Source of the DNA: Patescibacteria group bacterium | GTDB lineage: Bacteria; Patescibacteriota; UBA1384; UBA12157; JAENIV01 | Length of the DNA: 64,000 nt | Assembly: GCA_023485405.1 (NCBI GenBank) | Contig: JAMCZU010000035.1 | Span: 1,519 to 65,518, forward strand | Direction of reading: 5' to 3' | In this document: piece after piece, positions 2,986-37,910 of the stretch | How the letters are laid out: every line of letters starts with the position of its first letter | How positions within the stretch are numbered: position 1 is the first letter of the stretch | Position numbers and translations under genes: made by a program | The notes under the pieces: generated by a model | Databases searched by the model: none | Told to the model about the DNA's origin: nothing | The model's input: the letters and a program-made list of their open reading frames with translations, nothing else

Positions 2986-3331
2986 GCCTTAAGTAATCGA
3001 GGCAGTTAGTCCGACGTTACGTCGGACAGGAAAGTCCAGGCACCACAGAGTGTTGTAGTCCGATGTTGAGTCGGACCGTCCGTGAGGATAGGGAAAGTGC
3101 AACAGAAACATACCGCTAACCGTCCGCCAGCTGGCGGATAGGAGTAAGGTTGAAATCGTGTGGTAAGAGCACACGCGTATCTATGGTGACATAGTGCGGG
3201 GCAAACCCTACATGGTGCAAGTCTGGTGGGCTCCATTCATCATCAAGGTCTACTCGACCAGATGTCCGGGAGTCCAGACGCGTTAGATAGATGCTGTCAA
3301 AACAAAACCTGGCTTATCGATTGCTTAGGGC
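2986..3331 (+). ncRNA. rnpB: RNase P RNA, bacterial type A
   Basis: Conserved blocks AGGAAAGTCCAGGC (CR-I/P4), GTGCAACAGAAACATACCGC, GGTTGAAATCGTGTGGTAAGAGCACAC and ACAAAACCTGGCTTATCG (P4 3' strand). The 15-bp P1 helix pairs 2986-3000 (gccttaagtaatcga) with 3317-3331 (tcgattgcttagggc) and is followed by a T6 run. Local GC is well above background. Confidence 0.9.
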
Positions 3332-3920: not shown

Positions 3921-4685
3921 ATGAACCAAGAATTTGGCGCTCAACCTGAGGGGCAAGCCGAATGGCATGAGCCAACTAATGAGGTAAAAGAGGAAGAAAA
4001 AGAAGGAGCGATGGGTAAAATATCTCATCTTCTCCAAAAATTACCAGGTGGAAAATTTCTTCTTCCTTCAGCCGCCATTATTTCACTTTGGGGTGGAAGT
4101 ATTGAAGAATCAAGGGCTGATGCCAAAGATTGGTTAAGGTATAAAAATGGTGTTGAAATGACTATGCCATACGTAGCAGCTGATGTATTTAAAGCTGGAG
4201 TAACACGAAAAGCCGATGGCAGCTATAATTATATTGTAGAAGATGAAGAAAAATTTAACCAAGCATCTAGTACTAAAATGGGCGATTTAATTTATCAGTC
4301 AAATGAAGATATTAGTCTGCCTTCAAATCCGGAAAAATTTATTAAAGCTGATCTTGCAGATTTTAAAAATGAATTAGGGAAGAATTGCAAAGACAAAAAA
4401 TTAGTTAGTACTTTGGGAAATGAAATGGACAAATTTGCTAACGAAGTTTTTCCCCAGGGTTTGGGTAAAGATGGGTATGTTAATGTTGGAGATAGACCAA
4501 CTAAAATACAGTTTGCCGAGCTTCAGGCAGCAGAGTTAGAAGTTTCTGAGCATATGGCTAAAACTCAAAAAGAAATTTATACAATTAAAGACAAATCACG
4601 GGTGTCAGTCACTGGTATTGTTTTAACAGAGTATTATGATTTAATTAAAAAAGCAGCGGTGCTTAACATGGCGCGAGATAATTAA
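3921..4685 (+). CDS. Hypothetical protein, 254 aa, acidic N-terminus
   Basis: AGGAGG RBS. No motif recognised. Confidence 0.55.
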   Translation: MNQEFGAQPEGQAEWHEPTNEVKEEEKEGAMGKISHLLQKLPGGKFLLPSAAIISLWGGSIEESRADAKDWLRYKNGVEMTMPYVAADVFKAGVTRKADGSYNYIVEDEEKFNQASSTKMGDLIYQSNEDISLPSNPEKFIKADLADFKNELGKNCKDKKLVSTLGNEMDKFANEVFPQGLGKDGYVNVGDRPTKIQFAELQAAELEVSEHMAKTQKEIYTIKDKSRVSVTGIVLTEYYDLIKKAAVLNMARDN

Positions 4686-6670: not shown

Positions 6671-6922
6671 TTAATTCATTTTATTGTATAGCCAGACGAA
6701 AAGCCAAACAATCAGATAGGTGACAATGTCTATTAGGACCAAACCGATGATGGCTGAAGTAAAAGTAATCTCTGGCTTTGACGTGATAGTTCCGAAATGA
6801 ACAAGATAGCCGGCAAAGTTACTGTAAATACTTGGCAGTACAGCGGCAAAGAAGGTACAGATGAGATAAAGAATTGTCATCCAAACGACGGCTACTTTGG
6901 CAATTTTTGTTCCGTTGAGCAT
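6671..6922 (-). CDS. Small membrane protein (83 aa), hypothetical
   Basis: GGAG RBS. Two or three hydrophobic helices. Lies in the operon between copA and the ccdA-like gene. Confidence 0.5.
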   Translation of the reverse strand: MLNGTKIAKVAVVWMTILYLICTFFAAVLPSIYSNFAGYLVHFGTITSKPEITFTSAIIGLVLIDIVTYLIVWLFVWLYNKMN

Positions 6923-6955
6923 TTTTTCTCCTTTCTATTTTTTTAATTAAAACTC

Positions 6956-9376
6956 CTATTTAGTTTCAAGTTGACAAGTAGTTGTTTTGTTACACGATGT
7001 TTTATTAATCATATTTTCTTGCTCGGTCATATTTGAACTTAGCCGGGCAAACTGAAGGAAAAGCAAAACAAAAATGACGATCATGGCATATGGGGCAATT
7101 TTCGAAAAATAATTAATTTTAGCTGGTCTGAAATACTTAATTAAGAGTGAATTACTGACAACCGAAATAGAACTTAGGGCCATTGCTAAACCAGCTAATT
7201 CTGGTCTTAAAACCAAACCAAATTCCATAAAAACCCGAGCAGCAATGGGAATACCAATGACATTATATAAAAGAGCAAAAACCATATTTTGTTTTATTTT
7301 TGAAAATGTTTCTTTGGCTAATTCAATGGCGGTGACAACATCGTTAAGATCATTTTTAATAATCACAATACCGCCGGTTTCCATCGCCACATCAGTGCCA
7401 GAACCCATGGCAATGCCCAAATTGGCTTGAGCCAAAGCGGGGGCGTCGTTAATACCATCGCCGACCATGGCGACAATACGACCATTTTCTTGAAGTTTTT
7501 TAACTTCATTGGCTTTATCTTCGGGTAAAACTTCAGCTAAAACATTAGTGATACCAGCCTCTTTGGCAATCGCTTGAGCAGTTCGGACGTTGTCGCCAGT
7601 AATCATATAAATTTCAATCCCTAGATTTTGAAGTTTTTCAATTGCTTCTTTGGTCGTTTCTTTGATTGTATCAGCCACCGCAATTGCACCTAATAAATCT
7701 TTTTCGGAAGCGATGATCATTACGGTTTTACCCTGTTCCTCAAGCTTAGCCACTTCCTGCTCGATAGAGTTAATTGGCAGATTAACAATATCGGTAATTA
7801 GTTTTCGATTCCCGAAAAAATATTTTTTCTGATTGATTATACCTTCAACGCCGTGACCGGCAATGGCTTTAAAATTTGAAATTGATGAAAGTGTGATATT
7901 TTTTTCTTGGGCAAACCCGTAAATTGCTTCGGCCAGTGGGTGTTCTGAAGATTTTTCTAAACTGGCGGTAATTTTTAAAATTTCATTTTTATTTAAATTG
8001 CCAAAAGTTAAAATATCGGTTACCTGAGGTTTTCCTTTAGTTAAAGTGCCGGTTTTATCAAAAATAATGGTGTTAATGCGGTTGGCGGCTTCTAACGGTT
8101 CGCCACCTTTAATTAAAATACCGTATTCGGCGCCTTTACCCGTACCAACCATAATGGCGGTGGGAGTGGCTAATCCCAAAGCGCAAGGACAAGCAATTAC
8201 AATCACGGCCGTAAAAGTCATTAGTGAAAAAGAAAGTCCGGCGTTAAAACCAATAAACCAAACTAAAAAAGTTAAAATGGCCAAACTAATGACGGCTGGG
8301 ACAAACCAGGCCGAAATTCTATCGGCGAAAGTTTGAATGGGCGCTTTTGATCCTTGAGCTTCTTCGATTAAGCGAATAATTTGGGCTAGGGTAGATTCTT
8401 CACCGACACGTTCGGCTGTAAATTCAAAACTACCTTGTTTATTAATCGTGGCGCCGATCACAGTATCGCCTGGGTTTTTTTCAACCGGAATACTCTCACC
8501 GGTGATCATTGATTCATCAACTGCCGAAGAGCCTTTGGTGATTTTGCCGTCAACGGGAATTTTCTCGCCAGGACGAACTAAAATAGTATCACCAGCGACA
8601 ACTTTATCAATGGGCAAATCCAAAGTTTTACCATTGCGAATTACTCGAGCGGTTTTAGCCTGCAAACCCATTAGTTTTTTAATGGCATCGGAAGTTTTGC
8701 CTTTAGCCTGCATTTCTAAGTATTTGCCCAATAAAACAAAAGTAATCAAAAAAGCGGCAGTTTCAAAGTAGAGATCGGGAATTTTTTGGCTGGCTAGACC
8801 AAGTAGCGAACGATTGGTCAAAGCAAAGTTGGTAAAATTAAATAAGCTATAAAAATAAGCCGCCGAGGTGCCGATGGCAATCAGGCTATCCATATTGAAA
8901 GTCTTCATCTTCAAAGAAGACCACATCCCTTTATAGAAGCCGGCGCCAATAATAAATTGAACCGGGGTGGCTAAGATTAAAGAAATAATACCAAAATAAG
9001 GTGGTAACGACATTCCTCCGGGCAGCCATTTGAAGAAATCCAAGAACATGAAATAAAGCATTGGCAAACTTAAAATTAAGCTAAAAATAAACTTTTTCCG
9101 CATGGCTGAAATTTCAAATTCTTGCTTTTTTCTTTCAAACTCGGCGTCTTTCTCGTTAATAGTTTCCGCTTTGTAGCCAGCTTTTTTAATTGCTTGGATA
9201 ATGTCTTTGGAAGAAGTGGATTTTTCGTCAAATAAAACAATTGCTTTTTCGGCGGCAAAATTGACATTAGCTTGACTAATTCCCGGCAATTTTTTAATCG
9301 AACGTTCAATGATTAAAGCACAAGAAGTGCAATGCATCCCCGAAAGTGAGAGTGAAATTTTTTTAGGACTATTCAT
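6956..9376 (-). CDS. copA: Cu(I)-translocating P1B-type ATPase with an N-terminal HMA domain
   Basis: GMHCTSCA metal-binding domain, CPC transmembrane motif, DKTGTLT phosphorylation site, [10 protein letters not shown] hinge. Confidence 0.9.
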
Positions 9377-16819: not shown

Positions 16820-17915
16820 AAATCTCAAAATAGCAATTGTGGTGGAAGAACTGACTCAACTTGGTGGAGCCGAAAGACTTTTGGACTATTTTTTAGAAGA
16901 ACTGCCCAAGGCGCCGGTCTACACGATTGTTTGGGATAAAGAGAAAACCTTGCATCGCTACGACAAATTCGATATTAGAACTTCTTTTATTCAAAAGTTG
17001 CCTTTTGGGATCAAGCATTATAAATGGTATCTAGCTTTAATGCCCAAAGCAGTGGAATCTTTTAAATTAGCCGATTACGATGTTGTGCTCTCAATTACCT
17101 CAGCTTTGGTTAAAGGTGTTAAAACCAATCAAAATCAACTCCATGTTTGTTATTGCAATACGCCGACCCGTTGGCTTTGGACGGACTCAGAAAGTTATCT
17201 AAAATCTGCGCCCATCCCGTTTTTTGCAAGACCTATTATGCCGATCTTAATCTCATATCTAAGAAAATGGGACTTAAAAGCAGCTATTAGGCCAGACTAT
17301 TTTATTGCTAATTCCGAAAATGTACGAAAGCGAATTAAAAAATATTATAATCGCGATTCGGTCTCAATTTTTGTGCCGGTGGATTGTCGAAATTTTTCTT
17401 TATCCAAAGAAAAAGGGAAATATTATTTAATTGTTTCGCGTCTTGAGCCTTACAAAAAAGTGGAAATGGTGATTGAGGCTTTCCAAAAACTAAAATTGCC
17501 TTTAAAAATTGTGGGAACAGGCACAAAATTTGAAAGTTTTAAAAAAAGTGTTGGAAAAAATATCCAATTGGTGGGACGAGTCAGTGACGAAAAATTAGCG
17601 CAACTTTACAAAGATTCGATTGCGACTATTTTTCCTCAAGAGGAAGATGCGGGAATTGTGCCGCTAGAATCAATGGCCGCCGGACGCCCCGTCATTGCTT
17701 TTCGTCAGGGAGGGGCACAAGAGACTGTGATTGAAGGCAAAACCGGTGTGTTTTTTGAAAAACAGACGGTGGAAGACTTAATTTCGGCGATTAAAAAATT
17801 TCAAAAAATGAAGTTTGATCCCCAAATTATAAGATCGCAGGCCGAAAAATTTGATAAAGAGCTTTTCAAGAGCAAAGTTTTCGAGTATATTAATAGTAGA
17901 CTTAAAAAATTTTGA
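16809..17915 (+). CDS. Glycosyltransferase family 4 (GT-B). GTG start overlapping the upstream gene.
   Basis: E-x7-E region GIVPLESMAAGRPVIA...GGAQETV is typical of GT4. Confidence 0.8.
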   Translation: MRIKNLKIAIVVEELTQLGGAERLLDYFLEELPKAPVYTIVWDKEKTLHRYDKFDIRTSFIQKLPFGIKHYKWYLALMPKAVESFKLADYDVVLSITSALVKGVKTNQNQLHVCYCNTPTRWLWTDSESYLKSAPIPFFARPIMPILISYLRKWDLKAAIRPDYFIANSENVRKRIKKYYNRDSVSIFVPVDCRNFSLSKEKGKYYLIVSRLEPYKKVEMVIEAFQKLKLPLKIVGTGTKFESFKKSVGKNIQLVGRVSDEKLAQLYKDSIATIFPQEEDAGIVPLESMAAGRPVIAFRQGGAQETVIEGKTGVFFEKQTVEDLISAIKKFQKMKFDPQIIRSQAEKFDKELFKSKVFEYINSRLKKF

Positions 17916-17997
17916 ATTTCAAATTTCAAATTTCAATTGAATTTTAAATTATTTAATGTTTTAAAATTAAGAATTAAAAATTTAGCCGGAGGTTTTT

Positions 17998-18630
17998 ATG
18001 GAACTGAGAGAATATTTTAAAATCATTGGCAAGTATGGAAAACTTTTTTGGGGCATAGTCATTGTCACGATTATCGCCACTTTTGTTTTTACTAAAATGC
18101 AACCAAAGTCGTATCTTGCGGCCACTACTTTAACCGTTAATAAAACATCGGCGATTAAACAATCTCAGGTTAATTATTATCTTTTTGATAATTACTATAA
18201 TGTTCAGTCGTCCGGTCTTTTCTCACAAATTGTAGTTTCCTGGCTGAGTTCGCCGGCAGTAGTCAAGGACATTTATGCTAAAGCAAATCTGCCTTTGCCG
18301 GATGTCTCGCAGGGAAAATTATCTAAAACTTTTAAAGCGATTCGTGAAGAACCAGCTACCGTCAATGTTTCGATTAATGACAGTAACGCCGATGAAGCCG
18401 AAAAGCTAGTCAACGCCGCTGCCGCTGTTGTTCAAGAAAAAGCCAATGAGTTAGGCAAGTCTGATACGGAAAATATTTACGATATTGTGAAATTCGCCTC
18501 GGTGGTAACAGAGACAACGCCAAATTTATGGTTTAATTTACTTATTGGGGCCATTGCCGGTGTAATTTTAGGTGCAATCTTGGCTTTAGCCGTTGATTAC
18601 TTTAAGGCCGAAGATAAAAAAGGAAATTAA
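17998..18630 (+). CDS. Wzz/YveK-like polysaccharide chain-length determinant (short form)
   Basis: N- and C-terminal TM helices. The C-terminal helix is G-rich (GAIAGVILGAILALAVDY). Lies in EPS-locus context. GGAGG RBS. Confidence 0.65.
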   Translation: MELREYFKIIGKYGKLFWGIVIVTIIATFVFTKMQPKSYLAATTLTVNKTSAIKQSQVNYYLFDNYYNVQSSGLFSQIVVSWLSSPAVVKDIYAKANLPLPDVSQGKLSKTFKAIREEPATVNVSINDSNADEAEKLVNAAAAVVQEKANELGKSDTENIYDIVKFASVVTETTPNLWFNLLIGAIAGVILGAILALAVDYFKAEDKKGN

Positions 18631-18650
18631 ATTTTCTTTAAAGGTAGGGT

Positions 18651-19988
18651 ATGAAACGAACTCGTTTTGTTGATGGAATTTATTTTTGGAAAAAAGAAAA
18701 AAAGAAAAAAAAGCGAAAATACTTAGTTCTACTAATTTTAATACCAATTTTTGTGAGCTTCTTTTTTGTTTCAAAAATTAGCGCGGCCTATATTTTACCG
18801 AATCTCAATCTTTTAACCTTATTTCGAAATGGTAAATTTTTAGTGCTTTTCCAAAATAATTCTGAGCTTCGATCTTCTGGTGGTTTTATTGGTTCATATG
18901 CAGTGGTGGAAGTTAAAGATTTTGAAGTTAAAAATATTACTTTTAATACCAATATTTACGCTTTAGATAACGCGTTTGCGCAGAGGGCTTATGTGGCGCC
19001 GCCGGCTGGGTCAATGCAAAGAATGCTCAACGAAAAAACTTGGGCGCTGCGCGATTCTAATTATGATCCTTCTTTTTCTGATGCCGCCTCTGACGCCACC
19101 TTTTTTTACGAACAAGAAACGGGCGATAAAATTGATGGCGTTGTTGGTATTAATGCTAAATTAATGGTTGATTTATTGAAAATTACAGGGCCAGTAAAAC
19201 TGGAAAAATCTAATGTCACAATTTCAGCTGATAATTTTTATTTTGAGACTCAATCACAAATTGAAAGAGTTTACTATCAAAATCCGGAAAACTGGGTTTT
19301 AAATGAGCCAAAATCATTTTTGAAAGAAATGTATCCAACTATCTTAAGCCAGGCGTTAAAAGATAAAGTGCAACTTTTAAATCTGGTTAAAAATGAACTG
19401 GCGACCAAAGAAATTGTTTTTTATTTTAAAGATTCAGCTAAACAATCATTAGTTCAAAAACATAATTTAGCGGGGACAATTCCTACCAATCAAGAGTTAG
19501 GAAATTCTGATTATCTTTATTTAAATAGTAATAGTTATTCGGGTAATAAATCGTCTCTTTCAATGAAAGAAGATATTGATTATCGTCTAACTACAACCGA
19601 GGATTACGGTCCAAAAATGTATCAAGCCGATCTTAAATTTAGTCGGATTCATAGTGGTTCATACGAATGGCCCGATGGTAAGAATTTAGATTGGTTAAGA
19701 GTTCTAGTGCCTCAAAATGCCCAGTTTTTACAAGCTAAAATTAACGAAAAAGATGTTAGTTCTAAAGTTGAAGTAGGACAAGATTCTGAGAAAAATTATT
19801 TTGGCACAGAAATTACGACCGAGCCGGGACAGGCGAATATTATTGAAATAAGTTATCTTATTCCTTATAACTCGGATTATCATCTTTTGGTTCAAAAACA
19901 ACCGGGTCAAAATGATGAAAATTTAACCGTCACTTTGGACGGTAAAATGCTTTTTGACGGTCTTTTAAACCGAGATCTAAGGATCTAG
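18651..19988 (+). CDS. DUF4012-family protein, a common component of EPS/capsule loci. Contains the oligo-A tract KKEKKKKKRK.
   Basis: Signature LRSSGGFIGSY. N-terminal TM helix. Co-located with the sugar transferase, GT4 and Wzz genes. Confidence 0.6.
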   Translation: MKRTRFVDGIYFWKKEKKKKKRKYLVLLILIPIFVSFFFVSKISAAYILPNLNLLTLFRNGKFLVLFQNNSELRSSGGFIGSYAVVEVKDFEVKNITFNTNIYALDNAFAQRAYVAPPAGSMQRMLNEKTWALRDSNYDPSFSDAASDATFFYEQETGDKIDGVVGINAKLMVDLLKITGPVKLEKSNVTISADNFYFETQSQIERVYYQNPENWVLNEPKSFLKEMYPTILSQALKDKVQLLNLVKNELATKEIVFYFKDSAKQSLVQKHNLAGTIPTNQELGNSDYLYLNSNSYSGNKSSLSMKEDIDYRLTTTEDYGPKMYQADLKFSRIHSGSYEWPDGKNLDWLRVLVPQNAQFLQAKINEKDVSSKVEVGQDSEKNYFGTEITTEPGQANIIEISYLIPYNSDYHLLVQKQPGQNDENLTVTLDGKMLFDGLLNRDLRI

Positions 19989-20087
19989 ATGTTTGCCCAT
20001 CGATTTTTACATTTTACACATCCGATGTGTAAAGGCGTGTGTGTAAGTTCGAGCATTCATCTATGATAATGAGAAGTATAAAAACTT

Positions 20088-20135
20088 TATTCAACTATTC
20101 CCACTGGAGCGTCAAAAGTTGAATAGTTTCAGGTT
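20088..20135. repeat. Direct repeat R1 (attcaactattcccactggagcgtcaaaagttgaatagttt), which is internally hairpin-forming
   Basis: About 85% identical to R2 at 20805-20845. Together they bracket the wHTH/Cas2-fold gene. Confidence 0.6.
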
Positions 20136-20163
20136 TAGTATTTAAAAAGTTTTAAAGTTTAGA

Positions 20164-20760
20164 ATGAATAAAATTAAATTAAAACAAAGTGCGATTGTTG
20201 GACGACAAGTATTATTATATTTTGTTGATTTCTATCGTTACGCGATCCCAATTTTTGATAAAGCAAGAGTGTATCGAATCCCTTTTAAGGAATATGACAA
20301 ATTTAGACTTAAAGACAAAATTAAATTTAGCCAAGAAATATATCGGCTCAAAAGAGCTGGTGTAGTTAAAAAATATATTGATGAGAAAGGAGAGTTTATT
20401 GAAGTGACGCCAAAGGGCCAGAAATGGATTAAAAAATATTTTGTAGATCAACTAGAAATTAAATTGCCTTCTAAATGGGATAAAAAATGGCGAATAGTGA
20501 TTTTTGATATTCCGGATACGAAAAAGAACGAAAGAGATATTTTAAGAGAAAAACTTGAAAGAATTGGTTTTATAAAATTACAAGAAAGTGTCTATGTTTT
20601 TCCGTTTGAGTGTGGTTTGGAAATTGAGGCTTTAAAGGAAATGTATTTTATCAAACCGTATGTTCAATATGTTTTAGCTAATAGAATCGAAACAGAAATT
20701 AATTTATTAGAAGTGTTTTATGACCGAGGGATATTAGATAAAAAATATCTTAGGAATTAA
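20164..20760 (+). CDS. Protein with an N-terminal winged-helix-like domain and a C-terminal Cas2/VapD-fold domain, giving a PaaX-like architecture
   Basis: The C-terminus WRIVIFDIPDTKKNERDILREKLERIGFIKLQESVYVFPFEC matches the Cas2 beta-alpha-beta-beta core (YDI...R..L.k.L.....QySVFe). No cas1 gene or CRISPR array is nearby. Confidence 0.5.
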   Translation: MNKIKLKQSAIVGRQVLLYFVDFYRYAIPIFDKARVYRIPFKEYDKFRLKDKIKFSQEIYRLKRAGVVKKYIDEKGEFIEVTPKGQKWIKKYFVDQLEIKLPSKWDKKWRIVIFDIPDTKKNERDILREKLERIGFIKLQESVYVFPFECGLEIEALKEMYFIKPYVQYVLANRIETEINLLEVFYDRGILDKKYLRN

Positions 20761-20804
20761 GTAACCACTATTCTAATTATTATTCTCAAAATTTTATCTG
20801 TTAA

Positions 20805-20845
20805 TATTCAACTATTACCGCTCCAGCGTCAAAAGTGGAATTTTT
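20805..20845. repeat. Direct repeat R2 (attcaactattaccgctccagcgtcaaaagtggaattttt)
   Basis: Second copy of R1. Its central segment ctccag is the complement of ctggag in R1. Confidence 0.6.
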
Positions 20846-20925
20846 ACTGGTATGGATTTTATGTTTTATTGTATTTTGATAGAAAAATTAATAGGAAGTA
20901 AGAAACTTAATAAGTAAATAAAAAA

Positions 20926-20959
20926 CCCGCTCGAGTTCGAAAGGAACTATTTGAGCGGG
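20926..20959. terminator. Intrinsic terminator: nested hairpin cccgctcg...gagcggg that is T-rich on the minus-strand side
   Basis: 7-bp GC stem with an inner agttc/gaact stem. A T6 run follows on the minus strand. Confidence 0.6.
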
Positions 20960-20977
20960 GGAGAAAAACGAATGGGT

Positions 20978-21418
20978 CTACTTGATGAGGTGTACAAGGA
21001 GAGATTCAGTATAGAAGTCGTTATTGAGACGACTCCAGTATGGGTGCCATCCTGTTTTGCGATAATACAAGCACAAGACGTGAAGATTGTCGTCCAGATC
21101 ACACCAAATGGTGCCAGCGAATATTAAATAGAATTTTCGCCACAAGTGAGGGATGGTTTCTTGTTGTTCAAGCATTTGTTCAGCGTGGCGTTGTCCAGCA
21201 CGGCTACCCATTTCCTTGGCACGCTCGAGCATTGCATGTCCATTTATATGGAACTCGCTTTCATGAAGAAAGGTGTTTAGTGTAAGAAGGTTAGAGTCGC
21301 CCTCAAAATAAACATTATCGGCGAGTTTCCATCCATCTTCGAATTTATCAAGCCGGAAGCCAGAGGGAAGCTGTCTAAGAACCATCATTGGAAGATCAAG
21401 TGTTAATTTGGTGCTCAT
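20978..21418 (-). CDS. Hypothetical protein (146 aa) encoded by a GC-rich gene and probably foreign
   Basis: Strong AAGGAGG RBS at the internal ATG (MSTKL...). GC is clearly above the surrounding 30-35%. A terminator is present. Confidence 0.5.
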   Translation of the reverse strand: MSTKLTLDLPMMVLRQLPSGFRLDKFEDGWKLADNVYFEGDSNLLTLNTFLHESEFHINGHAMLERAKEMGSRAGQRHAEQMLEQQETIPHLWRKFYLIFAGTIWCDLDDNLHVLCLYYRKTGWHPYWSRLNNDFYTESLLVHLIK

Positions 21419-21577
21419 AATGAGATACCTCCTTTTCAGAATCCAAAATTGCACGGATAAAATTTTCAAGTTACATTATATTTTATCTTAAAAAACAATA
21501 AACTGTCAAGGTTTAGATATGGTTTGCGAGGGGTTTTACTTTAAATATTTTTTTGATATAGTAGATTTGTAAGATAA

Positions 21578-23569
<1,992 letters not shown>

Positions 23570-33671: not shown

Positions 33672-33718
33672 ACCTCTCGCTTACACTTCCGAAGTGTAAG
33701 TGGTAGAAAAATCAAGGA

Positions 33719-37232: not shown

Positions 37233-37910
37233 ATGGACCAAATTAAGCAAGTACGTAAAATTAAAATTACGGAAAATGGACCGTATACGGTTTCCGGCAG
37301 TGTGCCGCTTTCGGAGGAAAAAATTGTCAATGATGCCGATGGATTCCCCTTAAAATGGGAGAAAATCAAAGAGCATCATTGCAAAGAAGAATATTCTCTT
37401 TGTCGTTGTGGCCATTCCAAAAACAAACCATTTTGTGATAAAAACCATAAAGAGATTAATTTTAATGGTGAAGAGACTGCCAGCAATGTACCTTTTGAAA
37501 AACAAGCAGAAACAATTGTTGGACCTGAATTAATTCTTAAAGATTCACCTCCACTTTGCGTTCACGCTCGTTTTTGTGATCGCGCTGGTGGAATTTGGGA
37601 CTTAGTTCAAAAATCAGATGAAAAAAAATCTAAAAAAATTGCGATCGAAGAGGCTTTTAATTGTCCGTCCGGTCGGTTAGTTGTCAAAGATAAAAAAACA
37701 GGGCAAGCCATTGAGCCAGAATTTGAGCAATCAATTTCGGCAACTGAAGATGCGGAAGGAATCGCTGGTCCTTTGTGGGTTAAGGATGGTATTCCAATTG
37801 AATCGGCCCAGGGCCAAACTTACGAAGTCAGAAATCGTATCACTCTTTGTCGTTGTGGCCATTCGAAAAACAAACCATTTTGTGATGGCTCACATTATTT
37901 AATTTCATAA
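37233..37910 (+). CDS. CDGSH-type iron-sulfur domain protein with two CDGSH-like motifs
   Basis: CRCGHSKNKPFCDKNH and CRCGHSKNKPFCDGSH. Confidence 0.8.
   Translation: MDQIKQVRKIKITENGPYTVSGSVPLSEEKIVNDADGFPLKWEKIKEHHCKEEYSLCRCGHSKNKPFCDKNHKEINFNGEETASNVPFEKQAETIVGPELILKDSPPLCVHARFCDRAGGIWDLVQKSDEKKSKKIAIEEAFNCPSGRLVVKDKKTGQAIEPEFEQSISATEDAEGIAGPLWVKDGIPIESAQGQTYEVRNRITLCRCGHSKNKPFCDGSHYLIS

Follow-up and report, generated by a model that had tools for sequence, protein, structure and literature searches.

A small PaaX-type gene of Patescibacteria bracketed by two copies of a palindrome that may be its operators

Background

PaaX, the phenylacetyl-CoA-responsive repressor of Escherichia coli and Pseudomonas (structure 8a39), combines a winged helix-turn-helix (wHTH) at the N terminus with a central Cas2-like domain and a PaaX_C effector domain in a chain of about 316 amino acids (aa). 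According to a review of the phenylacetate pathway (PMC9493321), the E. coli protein binds TGATTC-N27-GAATCA, a long-spaced inverted repeat, and acts as repressor of its own promoter, Px. Here we describe a locus in a 64-kb stretch of DNA from a Patescibacteria group bacterium (assembly GCA_023485405.1, contig JAMCZU010000035.1; hereafter the window), a housekeeping region encoding RNA polymerase subunits, ribosomal proteins, elongation factors and gyrase, in which a gene for a 198-aa protein lies between two related 38-bp quasi-palindromes, R1 upstream and R2 downstream. The locus shares with PaaX the N-terminal wHTH followed by a Cas2-like domain; the long-spaced inverted repeat upstream of the gene, a putative operator, is of analogous geometry. 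It differs from PaaX in the length of the protein, in the missing PaaX_C domain, and in that the gene is bracketed by two sites with a conserved GCnnnnGC core. Judging from sequence comparisons across the family, the locus is probably an autoregulated mini-PaaX gene with two flanking palindromic operators.

Three other described systems invite comparison. Cas2, of the CRISPR (clustered regularly interspaced short palindromic repeats) systems, has the same β-α-β-β-α-β ferredoxin-like fold and, in what we take to be shared motifs, an Asp at the end of β1 and a Q-x-S-V. Unlike Cas2, however, the window protein is fused to a wHTH, it matches the Cas2 sequence model over only ~38 residues, the 64-kb window yielded neither a cas1 match nor a CRISPR-like array, and the family is widespread in Patescibacteria. 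The repetitive extragenic palindromic (REP) sequences with their REP-associated tyrosine transposase (RAYT) genes are similar in consisting of a small single gene flanked on both sides by short palindromes, in having palindrome types specific to each paralog, and in having dispersed copies in some genomes, as with the six or more orphan copies found here in some lineages. In contrast to RAYTs, the window protein is without a HUH/Y1 transposase domain; the symmetry of its palindromes extends across the centre, as suits recognition of a duplex, whereas REPs are hairpins with a GTAG-type flank; and the copy number is very low, with 2 in 64 kb. Lastly, repressors whose operators flank their own gene and cooperate by looping of the DNA, such as lambda CI with OR and OL, have palindromic operators on both sides of the gene, one of them overlapping its promoter, and autoregulation is what we propose here as well, although the two protein families are unrelated and a loop here would hold only a gene of ~600 bp. 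In the literature on PaaX-like and Cas2-like proteins in Patescibacteria, or candidate phyla radiation (CPR), we found no description of the family or of the bracketing; the arrangement in Patescibacteria is apparently new to the literature.

Results

The gene and its two flanking palindromes

The mini-PaaX gene, which NCBI names 'CRISPR-associated endonuclease Cas2', occupies positions 20164 to 20760 of the plus strand. A reading of the bare sequence (the original prediction) had singled it out as a 198-aa open reading frame (ORF) with a Cas2-like C-terminal segment, flanked by direct repeats of about 85% identity. The ORF is there, its product including the segment WRIVIFDIPD...QESVYVF, and so are the repeats: R1 at 20088 to 20125 and R2 at 20805 to 20842 are identical at 32 of 38 nt (84%), or at 34 of 41 (83%) over the first 41 nt, while a repeat search aligned 20088-20144 with 20805-20861 at 77% identity over 57 nt. 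The two are indeed related copies; what is repeated, however, is a quasi-palindrome, so that a simple direct repeat is the less apt description. The inverted arms of R1, TATTCAACT and AGTTGAATA, are perfect, 9 bp each with 20 nt between them, and contain the half-sites TTCAAC (20090-20095) and GTTGAA (20118-20123); the core, CACTGGAGCG, lies at 20102-20111, and R1 is 39 nt ahead of the start codon. R2 begins 44 nt past the stop codon, between convergent genes, and has the core CGCTCCAGCG at 20819-20828, with its centre flipped relative to R1; the core stretch of the site can be written as CGCTGGAGCG. That the central hexamer is inverted between the copies had also been remarked, correctly: CTGGAG in R1 and CTCCAG in R2 are mutual reverse complements, because the quasi-palindrome has an asymmetric centre, either GG or CC, that is flipped.

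The pair stands alone in the window. A 32-nt degenerate pattern describing R1 and R2 occurs exactly twice in the 64 kb, where shuffled sequences lead one to expect 0, and TTCAAC-N20-24-GTTGAA is found nowhere in the window besides the flanking site. A generic REP element scattered genome-wide, which the original prediction had named among the findings that would refute it, is thus ruled out for this window, since only the flanking copies are present. The gene is also, as had been claimed, away from cas genes and arrays: a k-mer spacing search found no CRISPR-like array in the window, and for the 54 window ORFs neither Cas1 nor any other Cas family is among the best 25 of 60 PADLOC families. 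Nor were cas families seen at those related loci for which genes were listed.

Palindrome pairs across Patescibacteria

We fetched 80 loci of the family from GTDB species representatives and, in 78 of them, compared the 200 nt upstream of the gene with the 200 nt downstream, counting a gene as bracketed if the best ungapped 30-nt match between its flanks, in either orientation, reached at least 22/30. By this measure 70 of the 78 genes are bracketed, against 4 of 78 when the flanks of different loci were paired. The matched elements are near-perfect 36-bp palindromes whose sequence is specific to the lineage. The upstream site ends at a median of 28 nt ahead of the start codon and the downstream site starts at a median of 23 nt past the stop (10 nt or less in 17/55); their centres are 567-795 bp apart (median 673 bp), with no clear signal of helical phasing in the spacing. 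Several paralogs occur per genome, and each has a palindrome of its own where the sites of both paralogs could be resolved. In the orthologs L001, L005 and L007 (70-84% identity) the gene again lies between two ~38-bp copies, the outer arms of which differ by lineage but keep their inverted-repeat character around the conserved core CGCT[GG/CC]AGCG.

The two sites of a locus resemble each other more than they resemble their counterparts elsewhere. The two of one genome agree at 27-35 of 36 positions, whereas for 19 of 21 pairs of orthologous sites from different genomes the figure is 16-26 of 36, which implies that both sites track something encoded locally. Moreover, a promoter element is enriched at the upstream sites. 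An extended -10 (TGnTAnnnT) is found just rightward of the centre of the upstream site in 14 of 48 loci, compared with 2-4 of 48 in the three control orientations and a background of 4%. At the level of the family, such promoter overlap is the layout expected of an autorepressor's operator.

A minimal PaaX-type protein

The best-matching domain of the product is Pfam PaaX_M (PF20803, 'PaaX central Cas2-like domain'), with 74.7 bits where the cutoff is 24 (E 6e-21); residues 103-177 align to positions 2-76 of an 83-position profile. Pfam Cas2 (PF09827) reaches 21.2, under its gathering score of 23.8. The NCBIfam cas2 model TIGR01573 does pass, with 28.5 bits against 24.5, over ~38 residues (profile 2-40 of 96), and this score above the cutoff would explain the NCBI name. 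The PaaX equivalog TIGR02277 gives 29 bits, far under its cutoff of 264.55. There is no match to PaaX_C at E up to 1, with ~20 residues left after PaaX_M, and the Pfam PaaX N-terminal model likewise does not match the protein. Neither a recombinase or HUH/Y1 (IS200/IS605-type) domain nor the VapD sequence family was matched in Pfam or NCBIfam.

An AlphaFold2 (AF2) model built on 44 homologs, with a predicted local distance difference test (pLDDT) score of 81.9, has a long N-terminal helix, then a wHTH (residues ~41-95: helix, helix, β-hairpin wing, helix) and a β-α-β-β-α-β Cas2-like ferredoxin domain at residues 109-172. Foldseek against the PDB places E. coli PaaX 8a39 first (E 1e-4, 137 alignment columns) and the PaaX-like Rv0674 next, followed by many Cas2 structures at probability 0.9-1.0 and a target-normalised template modelling (TM) score of at most 0.64; VapD 6zi1 comes behind PaaX and Cas2 as a weak match (E about 0.1, probability 0.63-0.82). 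The family profile also has weak matches to the wHTH proteins AspA, TubR, MarR and PadR. On the DNA, the part coding for the wHTH (residues ~38-95) can be placed at 20275 to 20448 on the plus strand from the AF2 secondary structure, these weak profile matches and the comparison of orthologs with operator arms given below; the part coding for the PaaX_M/Cas2-like β-α-β-β-α-β domain (residues 103-177) is at 20470 to 20694, also plus strand, as placed by Pfam, the alignment, AF2 and Foldseek. Pfam, AF2 and Foldseek thus agree with the call of a wHTH joined to a Cas2/VapD fold in that a wHTH is followed by a Cas2-like ferredoxin fold, with the VapD side weak. Of the three comparisons suggested at the outset, the one with Cas2 bears out a structural likeness, to PaaX as well as to Cas2, that with VapD is weak, and that with PaaX_C found nothing.

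The residues invariant in the alignment are W105, D106, W109, R110, D115, R124, Q140, S142 and V143, so that the Cas2-like domain carries an invariant WDKKWR motif, D115, R124 and Q140-x-S142-V143. D115 (in FDIP, compared with YDI of Cas2) and Q-x-S-V presumably correspond to conserved Cas2 motifs. PF20803 is present in all 120 homologs listed, and clustering of the family at 50% identity gives 3151 clusters for E up to 1e-3 and 1652 for E up to 1e-10; in the samples drawn its members come from Patescibacteria exclusively. Relatives were not found in IMG/VR viral contigs and PHROGs gave no match; a phage or mobile origin was set aside on these two grounds. As for the genomic setting, the neighbours encode a glycosyltransferase, Wzz, DUF4012 and gyrB/gyrA, and no paa genes appear among the adjoining ORFs or among the best 25 of 82 Pfam families for the 54 window ORFs.

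Going by its sequence, then, the 198-aa protein belongs to the PaaX_M-domain family and is best read as a minimal PaaX-type DNA-binding protein. It is not a PaaX ortholog, because it falls below the equivalog cutoff and is without the effector domain and the paa context. Neither, for all its Cas2 fold, is it a CRISPR Cas2, because no cas1 or array was detected in the window, the model match is partial and the fold is fused to a wHTH.

Architecture of the sites

The average symmetry of paired positions in 82 strong sites, followed outward from the centre, is 0.72, 0.85, 1.0 and 0.93, then 0.73-0.79, then 0.87-0.98. The layout is therefore a core of the halves GCnn and nnGC, a 4-bp spacer that is less symmetric and strongly symmetric outer arms of 10 bp; examples of the core are GCGATCGC, GCTATAGC, GCGGTCGC, GCAATTGC, GCTGGAGC and others. 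Of the two sites of a locus, it is often the downstream one that comes closer to a perfect palindrome. Written by its half-sites, R1 is TTCAAC-N22-GTTGAA, to be set beside the TGATTC-N27-GAATCA of E. coli PaaX: the geometry is an analogous long-spaced palindrome, it accompanies the same domain architecture, and by this analogy R1 resembles a PaaX operator.

Symmetry that continues across the centre is in keeping with duplex DNA read by a dimer of two-fold symmetry, not with a hairpin that has a free loop, and this bears on the possibility that the elements act in RNA. R1 and R2 could be hairpins of the transcript, in the 5' untranslated region and at the 3' end, or bidirectional terminators or insulators that need no protein, their likeness being incidental or due to duplication. 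The palindromes are after all placed at gene boundaries, their outer arms change with complementarity kept, and if transcribed they would, across the family, give stable RNA hairpins (mean about -18.7 kcal/mol). We consider this improbable, however, for most sites are palindromic to the very centre (GCGATCGC, GCTATAGC, CGATCG and others), a constraint that hairpin loops do not have, and upstream sites often overlap the -10, hence would not be fully transcribed. The 10 nt that follow downstream sites contain 3.8 T, where the base rate is 3.2, with 6 T or more in 7 of 39 only, and this lack of T-tract enrichment rules out the reading as intrinsic terminators; in the window, a terminator scan found none at R2, with counts at chance level. 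The hairpin that had been proposed for R1 holds as far as the inverted arms go, but the fold is weak, at -5.4 kcal/mol (z -2.5) for single-stranded DNA and -8.5 kcal/mol for RNA, and the values for R2 are -4.2 (z -1.7) and -5.8 kcal/mol. Rfam 15 has no match at R1 or R2 at the gathering score, and a permissive threshold gave chance-level E-values only (19900-21700). Action in RNA would also leave the gene-specific pairing of the sites unaccounted for.

The arms, moreover, appear to change together with the protein. Among close orthologs Q57 and K63 of the putative recognition helix vary along with the operator arms: around residue 57 the sequence is FSQE where the arms are TTCAAC (window and L005), and FSHE or FSRE where they are of AT(A)CC type (L001, L009, L010 and L007). 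In this small sample, the way in which arm type follows residue 57 is suggestive only.

Additional and orphan copies of the sites

Outside the bracketing pairs, 407 kb from 58 loci hold only five additional copies of the sites. Third copies lie in neighbouring intergenic regions, and two of the loci have a third copy ahead of co-directional genes, dut-tmk in L021 and a probable methyltransferase in L070 (names from ORF sequence only). In one metagenome set the perfect palindrome TTTACCTAACTCTGACGGTCGTCAGAGTTAGGTAAA recurs as an orphan in at least 6 intergenic places with no adjacent PaaX-like gene (L094 2735-2770, L096 9499-9534, L097 14670-14705, L098 4800-4835, L100 11733-11768 and L101 2530-2565). 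Two of the TTTACCTAACTCTGACGGTCGTCAGAGTTAGGTAAA copies are on one 119-kb contig, and four of the sites have in common a ~170-nt flanking repeat rich in CCCGAC...GTCGGG hairpins. A contig related to these orphans has a PaaX-like gene flanked by a near-identical site, and a 788-kb contig has one exact match to the scanned pattern. The scan used the pattern of one lineage and did not recover the query locus itself, so its results, which include orphan sites in other organisms, do not amount to a count of sites per genome. Separately, L088, a 20-kb piece of marine Patescibacteria, contains many long, 36-bp near-perfect palindromes in intergenic positions (3070-3105, 1262, 3022, 17451-17734 and 19046), of which one has the family-typical core ACTACACTTTACTCACGGTCGTGAGTTTAGTGTAGT with no PaaX-like gene as its neighbour.

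Orphan copies away from any PaaX-like gene, and the presence in the window of another, unrelated palindrome family (described below), could be taken to mean that a different protein (a further regulator, say, or a protein of the nucleoid or of partition) binds the palindromes and has the PaaX-like gene as one of its targets. We regard this as very improbable. The palindromes are lineage-specific and yet stay with the gene family in 70 of 78 loci with very different neighbourhoods, their arms appear to co-vary with putative recognition-helix residues of the gene itself, and their geometry matches that of PaaX operators. Both the third and the orphan copies fit a DNA-binding protein that acts in trans, which is the simplest explanation of the orphans.

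Synteny and the L001 block

The window, L001, L005 and L009 all have the order glycosyltransferase-Wzz-DUF4012-gene-...-gyrB, and across these relatives the protein is 77-84% identical, compared with 52-77% for DUF4012 and 81-92% for GyrB. Thus the gene is vertically inherited in close relatives and not recently mobile, since it is syntenic and about as conserved as its neighbours. The original prediction had entertained a small mobile module, which these observations, together with the absence of relatives from viral contigs, do not support at this locus; it had also looked to related strains for the same site, and there the gene and its paired sites were indeed found, in the syntenic relatives. 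Two Logan contigs of the same strain are 99.96-100% identical to the window. One of them, L109 (window 17517-20103), an independent assembly, ends exactly at 20103 within R1, immediately before the central CTGGAG; for this single case, thin coverage or heterogeneity where the palindrome has its centre may be the cause.

L001 differs from the window beyond the gene. There, the downstream site is followed by an extended -10-like sequence, TGTTAGAAT (found by eye), a LOOT RNA (Rfam RF03000, L001 4769-4889, 69.1 bits with the gathering score at 46.4) and a block of three genes for membrane proteins, two of which are Zn-ribbon proteins while the third has 216 aa. The whole, 2.2 kb, lies between near-identical direct repeats of ~55 nt (about 4625-4680 and 6796-6851), each of which includes the palindrome plus 17 nt of its left flank. 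As these repeats delimit the block, the boundaries of the insertion or deletion coincide with copies of the palindrome. Because the window is without the block, R2 may in part be a relic of a downstream operon arrangement like that of L001; the block may have been lost from the window or gained in L001.

Other features of the window

A second, unrelated palindrome, TTACAC(A/T)TCCGA(T/A)GTGTAA, occurs in the window at 20014-20032, between the DUF4012 stop codon and R1, and at 33681-33699, where 0 would be expected. A compensatory A/T change within the stem sets the two copies apart, and in L001 the sequence is at 7652-7670, ~25 nt ahead of gyrB; it could be the site of another regulator or a small hairpin. 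Beyond R2, a small ORF, MDFMFYCILIEKLIGSKKLNK, was dropped since on inspection it is not conserved in L005. A hairpin CCCGCTC...GAGCGGG at 20926-20959, with an A-run before it on the plus strand, resembles a terminator for ORF 20978-21469 of the minus strand and has a conserved counterpart in L001 at 6931-6974 (89% identity). Exact 20-mers shared by 37396-37440 and 37843-37887, 447 nt apart within ORF 37233-37907, suggest an internal gene duplication. Window ORFs also match the PADLOC models of a type II methyltransferase (E 7e-58 at best), of a type II restriction enzyme (2e-15) and of type IIG enzymes; CTGGAG, the centre of the R1 core, is a known type IIS/IIG recognition sequence.

Discussion

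Of the explanations put forward for this locus, including those of the original prediction, a PaaX-like regulator with flanking operators is the best supported, by the geometry of the sites, the family-wide pairs, their concerted evolution and the promoter overlap. We envision that the wHTH of each subunit of a dimer would read one outer arm (TTCAAC ... GTTGAA, 22 bp apart), the arms being placed around the family-conserved GC-rich core CGCT-SS-AGCG, and that dimerisation would occur through the Cas2-like domain. Bound to R1, just ahead of the start codon, the protein would repress the promoter from which it is itself expressed. R2 would be a second site for the same protein, for which we favour cooperation with R1 through looping, or else a role as roadblock, insulator or boundary; in this genome it may partly be the relic of an operator of a downstream operon that a sister lineage has kept.

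Several points weigh against autoregulation from two operators. Binding of the protein to the sites and repression by it have been inferred wholly by comparison. In the window, the right arm of R2 is degenerate (AGTGGAATT), and a sigma-70 scan found no plus-strand promoter at R1, its counts being at chance level, which is why the argument from promoters applies to the family only. As for the downstream sites, 38 loci have the next gene on the minus strand and 35 have it on the plus strand; ORFs of 150 aa or more make up at least 18 of the convergent cases, and promoters are not enriched at these sites in either direction. With about half of the neighbours convergent and no promoter enrichment, a general rule by which R2 is the operator of the next gene is ruled out. 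The Cas2-like domain may have a catalytic role, because both D115 and the Q-x-S-V motif are invariant. Finally, there are signs of exchange between the two sites. Pair positions at which the palindrome is asymmetric have been copied exactly from one site to the other, 27 of them in inverted and 24 in direct orientation; by locus, 9 are wholly inverted, 12 direct and 4 mosaic, the window being among the mosaics. In L029 the sites are identical at 36 of 36 positions in inverted orientation, and all four syntenic genomes have opposite centres, GG then CC in the window and L005, CC then GG in L001 and L009. Selection by a symmetric dimer does not predict the exact transfer of asymmetric bases in either orientation, which points to gene conversion or template switching between or within palindromes. 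The sequences thus suggest copying or recombination between the sites.

It is therefore worth considering that the locus is itself a recombination or mobile module, in which the palindromes would be sites of recombination or cleavage, the Cas2-like domain would be catalytic and the whole would be a self-maintaining cassette comparable to the RAYTs with their REPs or to a cassette with attC-like sites at its ends. Besides the exact copying just described and the invariant D115, such a module would accommodate the higher identity of sites within than between genomes, the near-identical palindrome-bearing copies that bound the 2.2-kb block of L001, the recurrence of an identical 36-bp palindrome in at least 6 intergenic places of one metagenome set, and the paralogs with a palindrome of their own where both were resolved. 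Still, we hold it to be unlikely, given the conserved synteny in four related genomes with conservation like that of the neighbours, the few copies (none other in the 64 kb, 5 extra in 407 kb of 58 loci, one exact pattern match in the 788-kb contig), the missing IMG/VR relatives and PHROG matches, and the absence of a match to any known recombinase or HUH domain. Besides, no recombination is known to be mediated by the nuclease activity of Cas2 alone. A related thought, resting on the exact asymmetric transfer, the concerted evolution and the copies that bound the L001 indel, is that, if its conserved Cas2-like domain with the invariant D115 has a part in this, the wHTH-Cas2-like protein might actively maintain, invert or spread its own ~36-bp palindromes, as a REP/RAYT-like or 'repeat-insert-repeat' system; we rate the chance of this as slight.

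Whichever of these holds, the family is of interest in several respects. Thousands of small Patescibacteria proteins are labelled Cas2 in a group that is otherwise poor in CRISPR-Cas, and minimal PaaX-type DNA-binding protein would be a better name for them. Each gene carries with it a candidate pair of sites, which gives testable pairs of protein and DNA specificity for a large uncultured lineage and makes the site pairs a natural data set for the co-evolution of wHTH specificity and operators. It is uncommon for a regulator gene to be bracketed in a conserved manner by two copies of its putative site, also at places where no promoter is expected, and this poses the mechanistic question of looping, roadblock or insulation, or recombination. 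The presence of Cas2-like motifs beside palindromic repeats bears on the relationship between Cas2 and the PaaX-type regulators, and, if true, a module in which a Cas2 homolog maintains palindromes would be previously unrecognised and may have a bearing on how Cas2 came to palindromic repeats.

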